Assembly (NCBI GenBank): GCA_030390025.1
Contig: CM059432.1
Span: forward strand, 34,598,001-34,662,000
Length of the DNA: 64,000 nucleotides
Direction: 5' to 3'
Source: Squalus acanthias
Lineage: Eukaryota
The notes under the pieces were generated by a model. The model was not told where the DNA came from and made no database searches. It saw nothing but the letters and a program-made list of their open reading frames with translations. Made by a program: the position numbers and the translations under genes. Shown one piece after another: positions 14,612 to 59,231 of the stretch. Every line of letters starts with the position of its first letter. The first letter of the stretch is position 1.

Positions 14612-14717
14612 TCTTTTGAAGTGTAGGCACTGTTAAAATGTAGGAAACGCAGCAGCCAATTTACGCACAGCAAGATCCCACAAACGGCAAAGAGATACGT
14701 GACCAGATAATCTATTT

Positions 14718-14756
14718 CAGTTCTGACGAAGGGTCTTCGACCTGAAACGTTAACTG
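14718..14756 (+). ncRNA. Minimal type I hammerhead ribozyme motif, family A
   Basis: CAGTT-CTGACGA-A-GGGTC ttc GACCT-GAAA-CG-TT-AACTG: core boxes, helix II, helix I, palindrome AACGTT. Confidence 0.8.
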
Positions 14757-16173
14757 TGTTTCTCTCTCCACGGGTGTTGCCTGGCCTGCTGAGTTTTTCC
14801 AGCGCTTTCTGTTGTTATTTCAGTTTTCCAGCATCCGCAGTATTTTGCTATTGTATCTATTTTTGTGATGTTGGTTGAGGGATAAATATTGGCCAGGATA
14901 CTGTGGCGAACTCCGCTGCTCTTCTCTGAATAATGCCATGGGATCTTTTACGTCCACATATGAGCTCAAGTCTCTAGGGTGGGACTTGAACCCACAACCT
15001 TCTGACTCTGAGGCGAGAGTGCGACTAACTGAGCCACGGCTGACACAGTTGGTTGAGCAATTGGGTCTCTGCAGAGCAAAGTAAGGCCCTGTGCGACCGA
15101 CAGCCCACTGCAAAAGGAAAAGGGGAAGCACAACACGTGGAGTTTGGTTCTCATTAGACAGGAACAGTAAAAAAAAACGGTCAACAAAAAAGCCCACAGG
15201 GCTGTCAGCCACTCCCGCCCTCACAGAAACAATCAAGTAGTGTGAAAACAGCAGGCCAGTGGCCTATCTGTTACCATGGTGATAGAGATGTTGCCCACAG
15301 AAGAGGGTTTGTTCTGTTGCTTTCTTGATGGTCAATTTTGATTCAGTCATTAATCCTGCTCCAAGCTCTGTCTGTAGGATTAGTACAAACGGCAGACAAC
15401 TGTGATCTTATTAAAGGAGCCTCCCAAGCAGATAAACCAGCCACATATCAGGTAATCAATGTCAACAGGGTGTTAGTCAAAGCTAATCTTGTCAGTTTGA
15501 AGGATTCCAGTCAGTAATAGGGAACGGAACATTCTTTCTGATTTTTCACTTGGGATTAGCATCAAACAGCCCCAGGTCAGGTACAGAGTGGGTTCAGAAT
15601 AAAACTCCTTCTACGCTGTCCCATCAGACACTTCCAGGTCATCTAGGGCATGGGTTAGATGCAGAGTAAAGCTTCTTCTGCACGGCCCCATCGATGTACC
15701 CCAACTAACAGTGCCTTCTAGCCCAGTTCTGGAACCGGTTGCCTGCCCTGGTTTTTGAAATGAAAATGCATCTTTTGCTACTTATTTCTGTATCTTATGA
15801 TGTGGTGCATTCGTTATGAAAGTGAAATCCCCAGCAACAATTGCCAGTCACCCTCTTTGCAGAAATCTTTTTAATGCTGGCAATTTATATTGGAAGATTA
15901 GTTTTAAGTTCCAAGATGCAATCCTTTTTTGCTTTGCCACTATTGTATCTCCTGCAGCTGCTCTCCCAACCCCTGGTTCTCCCATTCGCTCTCCAAGTTC
16001 TGCACTGCCCCATCCCCTGGTTCTTATATCCCAACTTCTGCTGCCCCATCTCAACCTCTGCTGCCCTAACACATCTCTTGCCATCCCATCTATCACAAAC
16101 TACCCTAATTCCATACCCAGCTTCCCATACCATCCTCAGCTTCCCATATCTCATCTCTGCTGTCCCTATACCA

Positions 16174-16436
16174 TGATGTGGAGATGCCGGCGTTGGACTG
16201 GGGTGGACAAAAATGAGAAGTCGCACAACACCAGGTTATAGTCCCAACAGATTTATTTAATTTTACAAGCTTTCGTAGGGAAAGATTTGAATAGATTTTG
16301 TCTGTGTTTATATTGTGAATTCTGGGAGATTCTCTCACTGCTACCCTACCTGAGGAAGGAGCGAACCGCTCCGAAAGCTTGTAAAATTAAATAAATCTGT
16401 TGGACTATAACTTGGTGTTGTGCGACTTCTCATTTT
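16174..16436. mobile_element. Penelope-like element pLTR remnant in inverted arrangement
   Basis: About 70 bp inverted arms, hammerhead motif, flanking duplication tgtccctatacca; homologous to the termini of the element at 27068-27958. Confidence 0.8.
16347..16383 (+). ncRNA. Minimal type I hammerhead ribozyme motif, family B
   Basis: TAC-CTGAGGA-A-GGAGCG aac CGCTCC-GAAA-GC-TT-GTA. Confidence 0.75.
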
Positions 16437-27067: not shown

Positions 27068-27156
27068 ATGATGCGGAGATGCCGGTGTTGGACTGGGGTG
27101 GACAAAAGTGAGAAGTTGCACAACACCAGGTTATAGTCCAACAGTTTTATTTGAAA

Positions 27157-27193
27157 TCACAAGTTTTCGGAGCGCTGCTCCTTCGTCAGGTGA
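27157..27193 (-). ncRNA. Hammerhead motif, family B (palindrome mutated)
   Basis: Reverse complement TCAC-CTGACGA-A-GGAGC agc GCTCC-GAAA-AC-TT-GTGA. Confidence 0.7.
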
Positions 27194-27870: not shown

Positions 27871-27910
27871 TTACCTGAAGAAGGGGCAGGATAGCTCCGA
27901 AAGCTTGTAA
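27871..27910 (+). ncRNA. Hammerhead motif, family B, in 3' pLTR
   Basis: TTAC-CTGAAGA-A-GGGGC aggata GCTCC-GAAA-GC-TT-GTAA. Confidence 0.75.
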
Positions 27911-28038
27911 TTTTAAATAAATCTGTTGGACTATAACCTGGTGTTGTGCGACTTCTCATATAATAGATGCTGAAGGTGCTAGTCATAACATTCAATGTGT
28001 ATCTGCTCTGGGAGTGTTTGATTGGATAGTGTAGAGGG

Positions 28039-31000
28039 TGTGATATCTTGGGGACACAGCATATATATACAACAGCGCAACATGGCTTCTGGTAAGAACT
28101 GTACTGTACATGGCTTTATTATATACATCAGTAGTCCATCAGATGGCTCTATTACACTTCTCCTCCTTATTGAAGGAGTTAATCATAGCAAATAATCATT
28201 GTACATGACCTGCATGGTATATACAACTCTTGGTATATATTTCTCAAATGGAACCCATTTTATGTTTTCAAATTCTACTATAGAATTCTGTAACACAAAC
28301 AAAAGATATAAGCTTAGTTTCCATATTAGTCAGAGTATGAAAGGCTTAGAGGGTGCGGAATTCTTAAAGTGCATCCAGGAAAGCTTTTTGAGCCAGCATG
28401 TAGAAAGTCCTACAAGAGAGGGGGCGGTACTGGACCTAATTCTAGGGAATGTAGCCGGGCAAGTAGTAGAAGTGTTAGTAGGAGAGCATTTTGGTGACAG
28501 TGACCATAATTCGGTGAGATTTAAGGTAGTCATGGAAAAGGACAAAGGTGGACCGGAGATAAAGGTTCTAAATTGGGGGAAGGCCGATTTTAATATGATA
28601 AGGCAGGATCTGGCCAAAGTGGACTGGGATCAGCTACTTGTAGGAAAATCCACATCAGAGCAGTGGGAGTCTTTCAGAAAGGAAATAGGGAGAGTACAAC
28701 GCCAATATGTCCCCGTAAAGGTCAAGGGTGGGACCAACAAGCTCAGGGAACCCTGGATGTCAAAGGATATACAAGAATGGATTAGGAAAAAAAGGGAGGC
28801 TTTTGGCAGATACAAAGGACTAAAAACAATGGAAGCTCTAGAGGAATATAGAAAGTGCAGGGGGGTACTTAAAAAAGAAATTAGGAGAGCAAAGAGGGAG
28901 CATGAAATAACACTGGCGGGCAAAATAAAGGAAAATCCCAAGGTGTTTTATAAGTATATTAAGGGCAAGAGGATAACCAGGGAAAGAGTAGGGCCCATTA
29001 GAGACCAAAGTGACAATCTGTGTGTAGAGCCAGAAGATGTAGGTGGGGTTTTAAATGAATATTTTACATCTGTGTTCACTATGGAGAAGGACGATGTAGG
29101 CATAGAAATCAGGCAGGGGGATTGTGATATACTTGAACAAATTAGTATTGAGAGGGAGGAGGTAGTAACAGTTTTAGCAGGCTTAAAAGTGGATAAATCC
29201 CCAGGCCCAGACGAGATGTAACACAGGCTGCTGTGTGAGGCAAGGGAGGAGATTGCAGGGGTTCTGACACAAATTTTCAGAACCTCTCTGGCCACAGGGG
29301 AGGTGCCAGAGGACTGGAGAACAGCTAACGTAGTACCATTATTCAAGAAGGGTAGTAGGGATAAACCAGGGAATTATAGGCCAGTGAGTCTAACATCAGT
29401 GGGAGGGAAATTATTGGAAAAATTTCTGAGGGACAGAATTAGTCTCCACTTGGAGAGGCAAGGATTAATCATGGATAGTCAGCATGGCTTTGTCAGGGGG
29501 AGATCATGTCTGACCAATTTGATTGAATTTTTTGAGGGGGTGATTAGGTGTGTAGATGAGGGTAGTGCAGTTGATGTGGTCTACATGGACTTCAGTAAGG
29601 CTTTTGACAAAGTCCCGCATGGGAGACTGGTCAAGAAGGTAAAAGCCCATGGGATCCAGGGCAACTTGGCACATTGGATCCAAAATTGGCTTAGTGGCAG
29701 GAGGCAGAGGGTGATGGTTGAAGGTTGTTTTTGTGACTGGAAGCCTGTGTCCAGTGGTGTACCGCAGGGATTGGTGCTGGGTCCTTTGCTGTTTGTAGTG
29801 TACATTAATGATTTAGATATGAATGTAGGAGGTATGATCAGTAAGTTTGCAGATGACACGAAAATTGGTGGGGTGGTAAATAGCGAGGAGGGAAGCCTCA
29901 GGCTACAGGATGATATAGATGGGTTGGTCAGATGGGCAGAACAGTGGCAAATGGAATTTAACCCTGAAAAGTGTGAGGTGATGCATTTTGGGAGGACTAA
30001 CAAGGCAAGGGAATACACAATGGATGGTAGGACCCTAGGAAGGACAGAGGATCAGAGGGACCTTGGCGTGCATGTACATAGATCCCTGAAGGTAGCAGGA
30101 CAGGTAGATAAGGTGGTTAAGAAGGCATATGGGATACTTGCCTTCATTAGCCGAGGCATAGAATATAAGAGCAGGGAGGTTATGATGGAGCTGTACAAAA
30201 CGCTAGTTAGGCCACAGCTGGAATACTGTGTGCAGTTCTGGTCACCACACTATAGGAAGGATGTGATTGCATTGGAGAGGGTGCAGAGGAGATTCACCAG
30301 GATGTTACCTGGGCTGCAGCGCTTCAGCTATGAAGAGAGACTGGACAGGCTGGGGTTGTTTTCCTTAGAGCAGAGAAGGCTGAGGGGGGACCTGATTGAG
30401 GTGTACAGAATTATGAGGGGCATAGATAGGGTAGATAGAAAGGAACTTTTCCCCTTAGTAGAGGGGTCAATAACCAGGGGGCATAGTTTCAAGGTAAGGG
30501 GCAGGAGGTTTAGAGGGGATTTGAGGAAAAACTTTTTCACCCAGAGGGTGGTTGGAATCTGGAACTCACTGCCTGAAAGGGTGGTAGAGGCAGGAACCCT
30601 CACAACATTCAAGAAGCATTTAGATGAGCACTTGAAACGCCATAGCATACAAGGCTACGGACCAAGTGCTGGAAAATGGGATTTAAATAGACAGGGCTTG
30701 ATGGCCGGCGTGGACACGATGGGCCGAAGGGCCTCTTTCTGTGCTGTATAACTCTATGGCTCTATCTATGACTCTATTTACAGCTTAAACTTAACCACTG
30801 GTTTTCTGTTTTGAAGAGGATAACTTCTTTCGTGAACAGAACTTTCAGATCTTGTTGTAGGACTTTGACTCATTCTTGGCTGAGCCTGCGGAGAATTTTT
30901 CTCCAAGGGCTAACCTTGATCTACATTTGGACTCTGTACACTATCAGACTGTTTGTCTGCCTGACTCGTGCTCAGAATTAAATTCTGTCTTTGTCTTGGA

Positions 31001-34000
31001 CTTATTTCTGATACGTCTGATGTAGGATTTGCTACAGGTACTCTACTTGTAACAAGACTATCTGACTCATCAGAATAAATTGAATCATCCCAGCTTTCAA
31101 CTCCTTCTACATCTGTAGGTAAGATATGATCAATGTGAACAAACCTAACCTTTCCATGATCAAACATCTTGACCAAATATGTGCGAGGGCCACACATCTT
31201 CACTACTCTTCCTGGTAACCACTTTAACCATTTATGGTGATGGTTCTTCACTCTAACCTTCTGGTTTAACTTCACACTTCTCTCTAACTCTACCTTTATC
31301 ATGACTCTCTGCCTCGATTGTTTCTCTTCTACGGATTGTGCCAAGTTTGGCTTTAACAAAGAGAACCTGGTTCAAGGCTGTCGTTTGAGAAACAACTCTG
31401 CTGGTTTTCTACCAGTGGTGGTATGAGAAAATTTGCCAGTTTGTGGTCCAACGACAACTAACGTTTCTTTGGATTTGGATCCAACATTTGTTTGATGAGG
31501 GCATGTTTGACAATTTGTACTGTGCGCTCTGCTGCACCATTTGAAGCAGGGTGGTACGGTGGAACTTTGGTATGTTTCACACCATTTCTGCTCATGAACT
31601 GTGTGAACTCTTCTGAACAAAATTGCAGCCCATTATCAGACACAATTTCTTCTGGGAGGCCGTATGAAGAAAACAATCTTCGCAAATTGTCTAGTGTTTT
31701 GCTTGTTGTTATTATCCACATCGGAAACACCTCTACCCACTTTGAGTGACTATCTATCACTATGAACAATTGCTGTCCTTCTAGGAAATTCTACATGTAA
31801 CCTTTGCCACACTCTGGGAGGCCATTTCCATGGCTGTAATGGTACTGATGGTGGTTTCTTGCTCACCGATTGACATGTTGTATACTGACTGACTATGTAC
31901 TCTATATTTTTATCTAAACCTGGCCACCATAAGTAACTGTGTGCAAAGCTCTTGGTCAAGCACATGCTGGTCATGAAGAGCTCCTAACAATTTAGACCTG
32001 AACCTATTTGGGATAACCACTCTTGCTCCCCACATGATACAATCTTTATCCACTGACAATTCATTCCTACAAATGAAGTATGGATGGATATCTTCCTCTG
32101 ATACCTGGTTTGGCCTTCCATTTGCTATGTAATCATACACCTTTGACATCATTGGGTCACGTTTGGTTGCCCTACCAATCTCTTCAGCTGTGACTGGCAC
32201 CTCATCAATGTATGAGAAATAGAACACTTTTTCCTTAGTGGGTGATGGGGATTGCAACCTGGACATAGCATCAGCATTACTGTGATCAGCTGATTGTCTG
32301 TACTCAATGTCATACGTGTACGCTGACAACATCAAAGCCCATCTCTGCATTCGGGCTGCAGCTAAGGTTGGAACTGGGGACTTTGGATGGAGGATTGCTG
32401 TTAGGGGCTTATGGTCAGTATCTATGGTAATCTTACCACCAAACAAGTATTTGTGAAACTTCTTGACCCCAAAAATCAATGACAAAGCTTCCCTTTCAAT
32501 CTGTGCATAATTCCACTCAATGGCACTGAGAGTGCATGAAGCAAAAGCAATTGGTCTCTCCTCCCCACTATCTAGTACATGGGAGATCACTGCCCCAACT
32601 CCGTACGGAGAGGCGTCACACGCTAGCTTGATCTCCTTAGATACACCATAGTGAACTAACATGGTACTCTCTACTAACTGGCTTTTACACTCTTTGAGTG
32701 CTGTGACGCATTCTTTTGACCACTTGCAAGGGACCTGTTTTCTCAACAGCTCATTCAGTGGATGTAACAATGTAGCCAAGTTTGGGAGGAACTTTCCGTA
32801 ATAATTCAAAAGATCCAAAAATGATCGAAGTTCAGAGACATTCTTGGGAGTGGGTGCATTTCTGATTGCATCCAGCTTTCCCTTGGTTTGATGTAAACCA
32901 TCTTTGTCTACTCTGTGCCCTAAGTACTCCACTGAGTTTTGAAACAACTCACACTTGTGAGCAGTCACTCGTAGTCCGTGCTTCTCTAGCCATTTGAGCA
33001 CTTCATTCAACACCTTATCATGGATTTGCCTGTTTGGTGCTGAAATGATTATGTCATCCAAATAACACACTACCCCTTCAATCCCTTGCAAAATTTGGTT
33101 CATCATTCCTGGAATATGCCGGGGGCAGAAGGCACTCCAATAGCCTATTGAACTGATATAGGCCTCGGTGAGTATTTAGAGTCAAGCATGTCTTGGACTC
33201 TTCATCTAACTCAAGTTGTAGGTTGGCGTTTGATAGATCTAACTTCGAAAAGATCTGGCATTGTGAACAAATCTTTCACATTTGGCAACGTATTGGGTAG
33301 ATTACACTCTAGAACCTGGTTTACGGTTACCTTATAATCACCACACAACCTTACCTTACCATCTGACTTAGGTACAACAACAATGGGTGTAGCCCAATTA
33401 CTCAGATCTACCTTAGAGATAATGTTCTCAGTTTTTAGTCTTTTGAGTTCTTGCTCAACTTTCTCCTTGAGTGCGTATGGTACAGGATGTGGCTTGCAGT
33501 AAACTGGTCTTGTGTCCTTCTGCACTCTGACACTCGCCTTGAAGTCTTGGATCAGACTGCCCGTTACACTGAACACCTTTGGATACTGCTTGATGACATC
33601 ATCTTTCGATGCAAATTTCGCTTCCACACGAAAAATCTCATTCCAATCCAACTTCAGTGATCCAACCAATTTCTACCTATCAAGGCAGGCGTGTCTCCTG
33701 CCACTACTATGACAGGCAAGCTCTGACACTGATCCTTGTATTTCACTGGTATGGTGACACTTCCTACTACAGGGATTTGCTCTCCTAAGTAGCCTCGCAG
33801 CTCTACTTTCGACTTCTCTATTCGATAATCATGCAACTTGTCGCGATATAGCGATTCCGGTACTACACTCACGGATGCACCAGTGTCGATTTCCATGGGT
33901 ATCCTGGTTCCTGCGACATCTACTTGGATGATGATACCTCACGAATCGCTGTTATATATCTTCATGCTCCTGATGACGTGAATCTCCAGAAACTCCTCGT

Positions 34001-35164: not shown

Positions 35165-36585
35165 TCATAGAATCATAGAATGGTTACAGCACAGAAGGAG
35201 GCCATTCGGCCCGTCGAGCCTGTGCCGGCTCTCTACCAAAGCACTTCAGCTAGTCCCACTCCCCCGCCCTTTCCCCGCAACCCTGCAAATTTTTTTCCTT
35301 CAGGTACTTATCCAATTCCCTTTTGAAAGCCACAATTGAGTCTGCCTCCACCACCCTCTCAGGCAGTGCATTCCAGATCCTAGCCACTCGCTGCGTAAAA
35401 AAGTTTTTCCTCATGTCGCCTTTGGTTCTTTTGTCAATCACCTTAAATTTGTATCCTCTGGTTCTCGACCCTTCCGCCAATGGGAACAGTTTCTCTCTAT
35501 CTACTCTGTTTAGACCCCTCATGATTTTGAACAACTCTATCAAATCTCCTCTCAACCTTCTCTACTCTAAGGAGAACAACCCCAACTTCTCCAGTCTATC
35601 CACGTAACTGAAGTCCCTCATCCCCGAAACCATTTTTGTAAATCTTTTCTGCACCCTCTCTAAGGCCTTCATATCCTTCCTAAAGTGCATTGCCCAGAAT
35701 TGAACAGAAAGGTTAATCATAACTTCCTTGCTTTTGTACTCTATGCCTCTATTTATGAAACCCAGGATCCCGTATGCTTTTTTAACCGCTTTCTCAACCT
35801 GCCCTACCACCTTCAACAATTTGTGCACATATACCCCCAGGCCTCTCTGTTCCTGCACCCCCTTTAGAATTGTACCCTTTAGTTTATATTTCCTCTCCTT
35901 GTTCTTCCTACCAAAATGTAGGAAGAACTTCGCACTTTTCTGCGTTAAGTTTCATCTGCCACTTGTCCGCCCATTCCACCAGCCTGTCTATGTCCTCTTG
36001 AAGTCTATCACTATCCTCTTCACTGTTCACTATACTTCCAAGTTTTGTGTCATCTGCAAATTTTGAAATTGTGCCCTGTACACCCAAGTCCAAGTCATTA
36101 ATATATATCCAGAAAAGCAGTGGTCCTAATACCGACCCTAGGGAACACCACTGTACACCTTCCTCCAGTCCGAAAAACAACCGTGCACCACTACTCTCTC
36201 TTTCCTGTTACTTAGCTAATTTCATATCCATGCTGCCACTGTTCCTTTTATTCCATGGGCTTCAACTTTGCTGGCAAGCCTATTATGTGGCACTTTATCA
36301 AACGCCTTTTGGAAGTCCATGTACACCACATCAACCGCATTGCCCTCATCAACCCTCTCGGTTACCTCATCAAAAAATTCAATCAAGTTAGTTAAACACG
36401 AGATAACAACAGAAAACGCTGGAAAAACTCAGCAGGCGAGGCAGCATCCGTGGAGAGAGAAACAGAGTTAACGTTTCAGGTCAAAGACCTTTCATCAGAA
36501 CTGTTAAACACGATTTGCCTTTAACAAATCTGTGCTGGCTTTCCTTAATTAATCCAAACTTGTCCAAGTGACTGTTAATTTTGCA
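35165..36585 (-). mobile_element. CR1 LINE RT to 3' end, interrupted by a 101-bp ribozyme insert
   Basis: SKFADDTKL, MRGDLIE; tctatgat-type tail. Confidence 0.92.
36466..36502 (-). ncRNA. Hammerhead motif, family A
   Basis: Reverse complement AGTT-CTGATGA-A-AGGTC ttt GACCT-GAAA-CG-TT-AACT. Confidence 0.8.
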
Positions 36586-36639
36586 TACAATAATGCGTAC
36601 AATAAGTTAATAAAATTCCTTAAAGAAAATATTTTTTAC

Positions 36640-36863
36640 CTTCTGAACAGATACTTCATGTTCTCCTCAAATTTGACTAAGACCATGGGAGGTGTTGGCC
36701 ACGTCACGCTCTTTCCATAGTCGCTCATGCTCCGTACACTCTGGAAGCGCCTCATTACCTCTATCAGATATGCCTTGACCTTGAATGTCTTGTAATAACT
36801 CATGATTGCGTAGACAGCTCTCATGCCCCGGCAACGTTTCCTAGCAAGGGCTCCCCTCCAGAT
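36640..36863 (-). CDS. MYO1G: Myosin I exon, IQ neck: IWRGALARKRCRGMRAVYAIMSYYKTFKVK...WPTPPMVLVKFEENMKYLFRR
   Basis: 224 bp, phase 0/2, acceptor tcctcaacag, donor AG/gtaaaa; completes IQ motif LQK-IWRGALAR. Confidence 0.93.
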
Positions 36864-44099: not shown

Positions 44100-45664
44100 C
44101 TGAAATACATTTTTAAATGGTACATAGATATTAAAGCGTGGTCAATTAATTAACATACCTGTAACAAGGAGTACCATCACCACATAGACTGCAGCAGTTC
44201 AAGAAGAAGGCCCACCACCACCTTCTCAAGGGCAACTAGGGCTGGGCAATAAATGCCAGCCTTGCCAGCATTGCCCACATGTCAAGACTGAATTTTAAAA
44301 AGCATGCAAATGTTGGAAATTGGAAATAAAAACAGAAATTGCTGAAAGTAATCACCAAAAGAACAAAAGGAGAGGTTAGGAGAAATATTTTTAGGCAGTG
44401 GGTTGTTAGGACATGGAATGTCTGACCAGAAAATCTGGGGGATGCAGAATCAGGATTTTAAAGGGAAACGGATAAATATTTGAAAAAGAAAAATTTTAAA
44501 GGTTATGGAGAGAGGGTAGGGGAATGGAACTGAGTGGAGAGTTCTTTCAGAAAGCTGATACAGACACAATGGGCTGAATGGCCTCCTTCTGTGCTGTTAA
44601 ATTCTACGATTTTATGAAATAGACAGCGGTTTAGTCAGCAGCTGTAAGAAGGAAAGACAGGCTAAATGATGATTGTGGTGTGTACCCTGCACCAGAATAA
44701 AGGCTGAAAAGGAAGATGAAAATCATTTTATTAAGATTGTAAAAAATAAAGAGGAAAAATGAGGAAGGGGAGAGAATCGACAGAGACTCCAATCACAGGC
44801 AGGGAGTTAAGGGGTTGAATGATCTGTAATCTGCTTATTAGAAGACCATTAGATGATATGAAAGATTGTCAGTGAGACAAGGGAAATACAGAAAAAAGGA
44901 AAAATAGTCAAGAGGGTGAAACAACAGAAAGGTGAGAAAGAACCAGAGGGGAGATGAGGAGAATTTATTTTACGGAAGCTAATTATTATGATCTGAAATT
45001 CACTGCCTGAAAGGGTCATGGAAGCAGTTTCAATAGTAGCTTTCAAAAGGGAATTGGATCTATACTTGAAAGGAAAAAATTGCAGGGCTAAGGGATAGAG
45101 CAGGGAAGTGGGACTAATTGGATAGCTCTTTCAAAGAGCCGACACAGGCACGATGGGCTGAATGGTCATCTTCTGTGCTGTATGATTCTATGCTTCTATG
45201 AAATGGGGGATTGGGAGTTGGAAAAACCCTGCAAGTGCAGCACAGAAAATGCTGGGACAACAGAGTGGGGTTGATTTTCCTGTTGCCCCTGTGCCTGGGC
45301 AGTACTCGGGCAGAGCAGCGTCCAAAGAAAATAGCGGCCAGAAGGATTTCACTGCTGACCCCTATCCTGTGGACCCTGGAAGGACAAAGATCTTTGCTGT
45401 GATCTTTGCTGCCTTCCTCTCTCCGATCAGAGCATCGGATGATCCTTCTTGATAGGGGGAGGGATTCAGGGCCTCTTTGGGGTCAAGGCTGGTCCAGGAT
45501 GATGTGGCTGGTGATGAAGGCCTGGGTTCCTTCTGCAGCTGACTTAGTAACCCTGTGCCTTGAGCTAGGCAGGATCTTATTACTGATTGACCAAGCAGCC
45601 TCATTCACTAATGGAACATGGAGGGGTAGCTCTCTCATTGCTTGTTCTCTCTCGACTCCAGATA

Positions 45665-57302: not shown

Positions 57303-58475
57303 GAAGGGGAGATGGAAAGTGGGAGAGAAGGGAGAGATGGGCAGAGGGGGAAGAGGGACACACAAAGCCAGGGCCGATGTTAGGACCATGCAACCTGTGC
57401 AATTGGACAAGGCCACGAGCTAGTCAAAGCAAATGTCATCCCTGTACAGAGAAGGGGAGGTGAATAGACGGAGAAAGGAGGGGTAAGCACAGACAGAGAG
57501 GGAAGGAGACAGAGAGGAAGAGAGTGGTAGTGAGGATAGAAAACAAATGAATTTATGGGCACAAACTATCAGCATTTTCTCAATGTTTCATTAAAGGAGT
57601 TGTTGAATGCCTCCTATTATGTCAAATAAAGGTGATTCATCTCCTCGATTGAAACAATGAATTTTTAACAAAATAGTTTGGGGATCAAAAGGAAAACAGT
57701 CTGACAGCCAGCAGCAGGGACTGAACGCCCCTATGTGAAGTATTTTAACATTTTGTTTTGAGTATTCAACAAAACCTGGAAATTTCAGTTGAGGTGTTGG
57801 AGGTTGAAGCACAGACAGCCATTATCTGCTAACTAGCAGATCTCCCCTGGCATTGCTCATGGTAAGTTGGAAGATTGGCTGTTTTATAACGACCAGAGCA
57901 TTACACCATGTGACATGCAATCTAGTATTCTGCTGCTGAGGTGGAGCTGCATGTTACTAACCTGTCCCTTTTAATGGAGATATCCAGAGGCCAATTGGAA
58001 GCTAATTGCTGTCTCTGCAGGACATTTGTCTGCAGACTGGCAGTTGATTAGAAATCCCCAGCTCCTTCCCTTGGAAAGAGGCCAGGTTATCATGGTCAGA
58101 AGAAACAAGTAGGAATGACTGGCTTTCTTTCTCTATTTTTTCTATATATTTTTCAAAGATGCTTCTTGTTGATTGGTCAGTTCTCTCTGTTGAGTTTTGA
58201 TTTGCTTTTGTTTGGTTCAAATGTCATATTCATTAATCAGATGCAAATTGTGACACAGACTTTCCATGTGTGACGCTTTTCAACAAAGTTTCAACAGAGA
58301 AAGACATTGGGGGTGAAATTTCCATCGTTAGCGCCTCCGGTGGGAGGCACTAACGGGGCGCAAATGGCTTTTCGTCCCCCGAAGCGCTAACCGCGCCTCC
58401 CGTGAAATTCTGCAGGAGGTTAGCGGTGGCGCTACCGGGTAGCGCCCCAATCTTCTGCGCCCGGAGATCATGACG

Positions 58476-58512
58476 TCACCTGACGAAGGAGCAGCGCTCC
58501 GAAAGCTTGTGA
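58476..58512 (+). ncRNA. Hammerhead motif, family B
   Basis: TCAC-CTGACGA-A-GGAGC agc GCTCC-GAAA-GC-TT-GTGA. Confidence 0.8.
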
Positions 58513-58560
58513 TTTCAAATAAAGCTGTTGGACTATAACCTGGTGTTGTGCGACTTCTCA
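58476..58560 (+). mobile_element. Solo Penelope-like pLTR fragment
   Basis: Matches the pLTRs at 16.3 and 27 kb through cgacttctca. Confidence 0.8.
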
Positions 58561-59231
58561 CATCCTGGTAGTGGCGTGATACAATGATAATGGTGTTGTT
58601 GACTAATCACAGCAATCAATCTCTTTCAATTAGTCTACAGCAGACCCAAATATCACGAGGAAAACCACCAGGAGTGGAGAGCTTTGGGAACCATAGGTCC
58701 AAAGTCACCTGTTCCTCCCAAGCATGCTACACTTTATGACATCTCTGAGAAATGTCCCAAAGTGTTTCACATAGAATAATTTACTTTCAAATACTGGGGT
58801 GAGGAAGACACTATACAATTCTGGGGACAGAAAGTGGAGTCCAAGGTGAAGCATTTGTACCAACCAGATCACTTCCTTTAATCCTTTTCTTATGCTCTTA
58901 CAAAACGTAACATGTAACGAGACAGCGTGAAATGAGAAATGTCCATTGGGCCCACCAGCCTACTTCCTCCAATTCCGGAGATGCTTGAGTGAAAGGTTAA
59001 TCCCCAAGGTTGAAAAGAGTAGGCGGGAGGATGAGGCAGATCAGCAAGTGGTGATTAAAGGGGAAGTGGATCAGTACTTGAAAAGGAAAAATTTAAAAGG
59101 ATACTGGAAAATGGCAGGGAAATGGGATTTGAGTGTGTCAGCTCTAGCTGAAAAACTAGCACTGACACAGGCGCAATAGGCCAAATAGACTGCTTCTGTG
59201 CTGTAATTTCAGTGATTCTTTGATTGAGCAT

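Follow-up and report, generated by a model that had tools for sequence, protein, structure and literature searches.

The transposition of Penelope-like elements (PLEs) is poorly understood, and the role of the hammerhead ribozymes that they carry is open. The protein of PAc, the Poseidon element of Anolis carolinensis, nicks AT-rich DNA and starts reverse transcription inside its own RNA at either of two sites (PMC11167929). Its reverse transcriptase (RT) works on uncleaved RNA and does not require ribozyme cleavage (PMC11167929). The anole ribozyme itself cut only in the presence of its protein (PMC11167929). Minimal hammerheads (min-HHRs) present as single motifs showed no cleavage (PMC4209133).

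Here we analyzed a 101-nt hammerhead-bearing insert within a 64,000-nt stretch of Squalus acanthias DNA (the window). The insert lies on the minus strand at 36402-36502 and is flanked by an exact 11-bp target-site duplication (TSD) that allows no extension, GTTAAACACGA, at 36503..36513 on the element's 5' side and 36391..36401 on its 3' side, neither copy having a strand. We estimate the chance of an exact 11-mer at both element boundaries at ~1e-5 (4^-11 x ~100 offsets). When the insert and one TSD are taken out, the flanks align without gaps, at 72% identity, to a further two CR1 copies within the window, and continuous RT codons are restored (GKSCLTNLIEFF). CR1-family contigs from two of four public runs (X13 and X2) carry the same empty site: they join 36390 to 36503 and skip 112 positions, and at this joint 11 letters fit either side. 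None of the contigs extended over the unique side with the exon, where an orthologous empty allele would be recognizable. The original prediction had described an 11-bp duplication and a return to CR1 sequence upon removal of the insert, and both hold.

The host repeat, a decayed ORF2 (RT) fragment with stops and frameshifts at 35800..36583 on the minus strand (lower boundary approximate), is one that we take to be a CR1 LINE, recognized from its translation. It sits in an intron of a class-I myosin gene, assigned as such because neighboring exons match Myosin_head and Myosin_TH1 with myosin-Ic as the best solved match. The exon of the IQ/neck region occupies 36640..36863 on the minus strand, with a GT donor at 36639. 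Since the minus strand carries the myosin exons, the hammerhead is sense to the myosin pre-mRNA, and the predicted distance of about 140 nt past the donor proved to be 137 nt from 36640/36639. Further myosin head exons reach window coordinate 109 kb, and exon 1 was not found in the region examined. An LTR retrotransposon also lies in a myosin intron, at ~30900-33200 on the minus strand, where fragments of disrupted ORFs carry RT and integrase-like words.

A minimal type-I hammerhead that fits the published min-HHR description (PMC4209133) occupies 36466..36502 on the minus strand, where the insert reads AGTT-CTGATGA-A, a 5-bp helix II, and GAAA-CGTT-AACT. As RNA, the 4-bp helix I (AGUU/AACU) is followed by CUGAUGA and one bulged A, and the 5-bp helix II, closed by a 3-nt loop, is followed by GAAA; the palindromic AC-GU has no loop III. 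This motif was read by eye and with a pattern, an Rfam scan of the 64-kb window at the gathering score giving 0 matches. If element coordinates are counted from +1 at window position 36502, hammerhead geometry predicts self-cleavage after U17 (GUU^AACU), at 36469..36470 or element +33/+34. The TSD, the empty site, the hammerhead, its strand and its distance from the donor are thus confirmed.

The insert belongs to an abundant family, hereafter family A. A 27-mer taken from it has 27,598 exact matches in the 3.7-Gb genome (control, 0), many copies are 98-100% identical to it, and many extend upstream across a 3' UTR rich in pyrimidines and enter an ORF. One intact copy, L128, has the structure pLTR - 973-aa ORF - pLTR with a TSD, a unit of 3199 nt and a pLTR pair of 1078 nt at 99.8% identity. 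The insert at 36402..36502 on the minus strand corresponds to element +1 to +100 plus one mismatching base and is 95/100 identical to L128; one of the five differing bases creates an in-frame stop, and the three element bases beyond the non-matching base match the start of the TSD, which takes the correspondence to about +104. As the reading frame opens at +2, the insert has a double identity: it is the 3' end when the element is in tandem, and it also forms the opening 100 nt of the coding RNA.

The L128 ORF matches RVT_1 (E 2.5e-5) and, toward its C-terminal end, a GIY-YIG domain (E 4e-4), both just under the Pfam cut-off. Reading of its translation revealed RT catalytic motifs, a CX4CxxC linker (CTRRRCNTC) and a CCHH motif, with CSRC between the GIY and YIG words and two histidines downstream. 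Family A combines RT and GIY-YIG in a single ORF with partial-tandem pLTRs, a pLTR hammerhead and TSDs of variable length, and it also has inverted 5' copies and a one-sided tail of 30-40 bp, features that define EN+ PLEs. TSDs of at least 7 bp were detected in 26 of 53 simple copies by an automatic search that misses some, compared with 11 bp for the insert. The C-terminal endonuclease carries the CX2-5CxxC linker and CCHH of the Neptune clade (PMC8557442), and judged by these sequence features the parent family would be of Neptune type. The insert is almost certainly a short copy of such an element's hammerhead-bearing end. It is a collinear piece of an autonomous PLE and not a free mini-element, and a separately mobilized small RNA, the reading closest to the defined mobilized RNA of the original prediction, is improbable. 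The locus L128:1009-5285, a young intact Neptune-type element with a TSD, is a candidate for in-vitro work on PLE transposition. A further locus, L032:740-4077 on the minus strand, has two long ORFs with protease, RT, RNase H and integrase-like words and is an LTR retroelement or provirus.

The window holds a second family-A copy at 14718..14854 on the plus strand, antisense to the myosin gene. This tailed copy spans element 0 to +136 within an 8-bp TSD (ATCTATTT at 14710-14717 and 14855-14862) and shares 92% identity with the insert over 100 nt. Alignment bore out that the two have a common ribozyme-side end, both starting at C-AGTTCTGA, and that the insert is shorter at the other end, where the 14.7-kb copy extends ~35 nt further. 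The whole difference in length arises because the insert has the short 3' end and the 14.7-kb copy has the tail. At 44310-44347 on the minus strand lies a 3' fragment of family A that is older and diverged and lacks the ribozyme.

We then determined both ends of family-A copies in a sample from one end of contig C1 (0.26-11.9 Mb). It was made of the 100 matches that head the listing by genome position, which gave 98 distinct contexts. The 3' ends fell into two groups, 59/98 at +97..+109 and 39/98 at +132..+155, with none between. These match two RT start sites and the associated 30-40-bp tail (PMC11167929, PMC8557442). The non-ribozyme end, at which the two window copies differ, is not random but has two defined positions, and this seemingly variable end is better defined than the ribozyme-side end.

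Head-to-head pairs with both arms sampled had one short and one tailed end in 11/11 cases. These loci are L047, L072, L077-L081, L086, L110, L125 and L127, and their short arms are mostly found with short arms. Two source RNAs for the two inverted arms are unsupported, the arms of L072 and L086 having rare variants in common. We also rejected fold-back on the hammerhead hairpin as a cause of inverted stubs, as arm breakpoints give no fixed sum.

On the ribozyme side, merging of short inverted pairs left 91 family-A events, the furthest reach being counted in each; the denominators are somewhat high, since not every long inverted pair or local duplicate was merged. The 5' end lay within 10 nt of the core C, a 21-nt window, in 26 of the 91 events. 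Seven others stop earlier and four end within the adjoining 60 nt upstream; the remaining 54 extend further, some by more than 1.9 kb into the RT-endonuclease ORF. Per base, 5' ends at the ribozyme side are preferred about tenfold (26 events versus 4 over those 60 nt; binomial p 5e-12, with the window set after inspection of these data). The same count was added for a second family, B, because the window had been set in this way. Among 101 family-B copies giving 80 events (0.02-3.1 Mb, at the same end of contig C1), 22 ended in the identical window versus 10 over the adjoining 60 nt (p 5e-7). The end-position histogram that had been suggested, run on 98 copies, therefore shows that both ends are non-random, but also that the ribozyme-side end is preferred rather than fixed. 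The argument from a fixed end to a defined RNA stands only in part: the end is strongly non-random (26/91) and not fixed, as 58/91 events run further upstream.

Family B is the second PLE family of the window, with a different minimal hammerhead (palindrome AAGCTT) and copies at 16214-16432, 27108-27193 (minus strand), 27873-27961 and 58475-58564. A family-B 28-mer has 92,044 exact genome matches. Its copies have the same two 3' ends and the same 5' pile-up as those of family A, and the position that would correspond to +1 is about -7 from the core C. Many copies sit inside repeats, whether CR1-like or of another kind, and two occupy almost identical positions of the repeat (L028 and L132; L010, L014, L061 and L150 flanks). 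At L052, L086, L051 and L089, unrelated sequence ending ...ATTTT(T/C)GGCC is joined to the 5' end of the copy, possibly another mobile element that targets family A.

The pile-up is not an alignment artefact, since TSDs sit at the junction in 12/14 simple family-A copies whose ends lie from -4 to +13 (judged by eye). This rules out, for the sample, an artefact from sister subfamilies with other upstream sequence, which were seen as loose ends at L128:1980. Self-cleavage was rejected as the origin of the shared end, because the cut site is 33 nt inside and only 2/91 events start within 3 nt of +34. Purifying selection against the acceptor-like tract was also rejected as the cause of the pile-up, as long copies retain the tract. 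To the extent of the openly readable literature we found no description of a 5'-end pile-up at helix I, although Fig. S2 of PMC11167929 might show it.

The pile-up likely marks the 5' end of the element RNA, that is, its transcription start. On balance, we favor the view that the insert is cDNA of the leading ~100 nt of this RNA, made by run-off at its start, which we infer. The element enzyme would nick the old CR1 repeat, and copying would begin ~100 bases inside the element's own RNA. On the RNA of a tandem element, the sites at which RT starts should be present twice, once in each pLTR. A start at the downstream pLTR copy would give long inserts with random 5' truncation, whereas a start at the upstream copy would leave a template of only 100-138 nt, with copying ending at the first base of the RNA.

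Several observations at the 5' junctions bear on this start. In both families the modal end coincides with the A of a word that resembles an initiator (CCAGTTC and TCACTTC), YYANWYY being the initiator consensus, though this is a weak motif in pyrimidine-rich DNA. At three family-B loci (L141, L147 and L105) the 5' junction carries a 6-nt stutter repeat, as if the last template bases had been copied again, as might be expected at a template end. No extra G that could derive from a cap precedes the family-A copies starting at +1 (0/4). A G often precedes the start in family B, which is explained by the inverted arm.

RT copying a long RNA might alternatively stall or fall off at the front of the hammerhead, at the end of a hairpin or at a protein bound to the pyrimidine tract. 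We consider such a roadblock unlikely. Folding predicts a single hairpin for the stretch from 0 to +40, with its base at the pile-up, and in family A a pyrimidine tract lies just upstream, both of which would suit a stall. Yet ends in +11..+70 are no denser than the upstream background (0.0013 versus 0.0011-0.0025 per nt), and the same pile-up occurs in two families whose upstream sequences differ. Structure-caused RT stops usually fall on the 3' side of a helix, and the pile-up is on the 5' side.

A SINE-like family, in which short masters that begin at helix I would be transcribed independently and mobilized by the PLE protein, is improbable. Short copies do make up ~30% of events with a common start, and, given the internal promoter of D. 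virilis Penelope (PMC2377424), transcription of a copy that begins at +1 would be possible in principle. Such masters should differ from long copies, but the same alleles were found in both at 6 sites (16 short versus 50 long copies, all p>0.1), a comparison of low power in which no allele separated the two. Short copies also use both 3' ends (9 short and 7 tailed of 16), as long ones do. The junctions of head-to-head stubs vary between copies, and the simple copies viewed have no carried-over flank between the TSD and +1.

An origin of the end at a 3' splice site is even less probable. In Penelope of D. virilis, a 3' splice site stands at the corresponding point and transcription starts 121 nt upstream of it (PMC2377424, PMC4209133), and the intron ends at helix I (PMC4209133). 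Family A likewise has an acceptor-like sequence, a pyrimidine tract and CAG at 0..+2, exactly at the pile-up. Nevertheless, family B lacks an AG at its own pile-up, short copies carry no shared upstream exon, and among the joints listed no contig joins a donor to L128:1984.

If the run-off reading is correct, the pile-up predicts an RNA start at +1 and a ribozyme that is copied uncut, and its sharpness in two families is a clue to the mechanism of PLE transposition. We tentatively raise the further possibility that the short stubs, in their tens of thousands, are fossil 5'-RACE products of RNAs with a capped start at the first base of helix I. The ribozyme would then lie at the extreme front of the mRNA, and a protein-assisted cut at +33/+34 would remove the cap. 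In that case the hammerhead would be a switch between translating and destroying the RNA and not a tool for excising monomers.

We further considered the effect of the insert on its host gene. The original prediction that a monomer is probably silent agrees with folding: helix III cannot form in a monomer, an inactive hairpin is favored, and the predicted pairing probability of helix I is <=0.004. The same prediction proposed that the sense hammerhead could pair in trans with another copy and cut the myosin intron at 36469/36470, which we now regard as extremely improbable. The core and helix I are intact on the transcribed strand, as is the core in 47 of the 69 copies that cover +1..+37. The family is also found in contigs from runs that we guess to be RNA, from related organisms, and the anole ribozyme cuts once its protein is added (PMC11167929). 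However, the dimer would be held by only three 4-bp helices, and the double hammerhead is predicted to be uphill by +6 to +21 kcal/mol relative to two monomers, in a model without Mg2+, tertiary contacts or protein. The same energy model gives an active dimer fraction below 1e-10 at 0.5 uM. Suitable partners are also missing nearby, as the 224 kb around the insert hold no other same-strand family-A copy with an intact core and a single other sense copy that covers the core, which is broken in it. The sense family-B copies differ from family A in palindrome and helix I, and in the one at 27.2 kb, which has the myosin-sense orientation, a helix III base is altered. Elsewhere, tandem min-HHRs cut weakly in vitro (PMC4209133), and RNA-seq reads with an end at the anole cut site were absent (PMC11167929). 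On these models the insert is very probably silent in the myosin intron, and it is improbable that it affects regulation of the myosin gene. Protein-assisted cleavage may occur in germ cells, although nothing in our data supports it.

How does the insert compare with known ribozyme-bearing elements? It resembles non-LTR retrozymes in being non-coding and PLE-linked with a type-I hammerhead (bioRxiv 10.64898/2026.07.22.740005, PMC7229834). Retrozymes, in contrast, are tandem monomers bounded by the cut site, whereas the insert stands alone, extends over the cut site and follows the sequence of an autonomous element collinearly. The single copy running across the cut site, together with the scarcity of events starting at +34, led us to reject a retrozyme identity.

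The motif has much in common with the min-HHRs of metazoan PLEs (PMC4209133): a short helix I, a bulge between 9 and 10.1, a palindromic 15.2-16.2 without loop III, and occurrence mostly as single dispersed motifs from truncated PLEs. It departs from them at pair 10.1-11.1, which is A-U in the insert and G-U in other alleles, versus the usual G-C (PMC4209133). Sharks are not named among the min-HHR hosts in the available part of PMC4209133. With EN+ PLEs of the Neptune clade (PMC8557442), the parent element shares an RT with C-terminal GIY-YIG, the CX2-5CxxC linker and CCHH, as well as a hammerhead pLTR, 5' truncation, inverted 5' copies, a tail and a TSD. At the level of the insert we see no difference from the elements described there (PMC8557442). 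By all features tested, the insert is thus a 5'-truncated insertion of an EN+ PLE, ordinary debris of a known class.

The comparison with PAc (PMC11167929) reveals differences as well as likenesses. Family A has the CX4CxxC linker of the Neptune type, unlike PAc, and its core ATG is allele-specific (T at +9 in 23/66 copies), with a second in-frame ATG at +56, past the cut site. The available text on PAc describes no pile-up of 5' ends at helix I. In both elements, however, the hammerhead lies at the start of the ORF, and the cut site falls 26 nt after an ATG, here in the L128 allele (PMC11167929). As in PAc, copies of family A contain the uncut ribozyme, and there are two RT start sites whose spacing equals the tail (PMC11167929).
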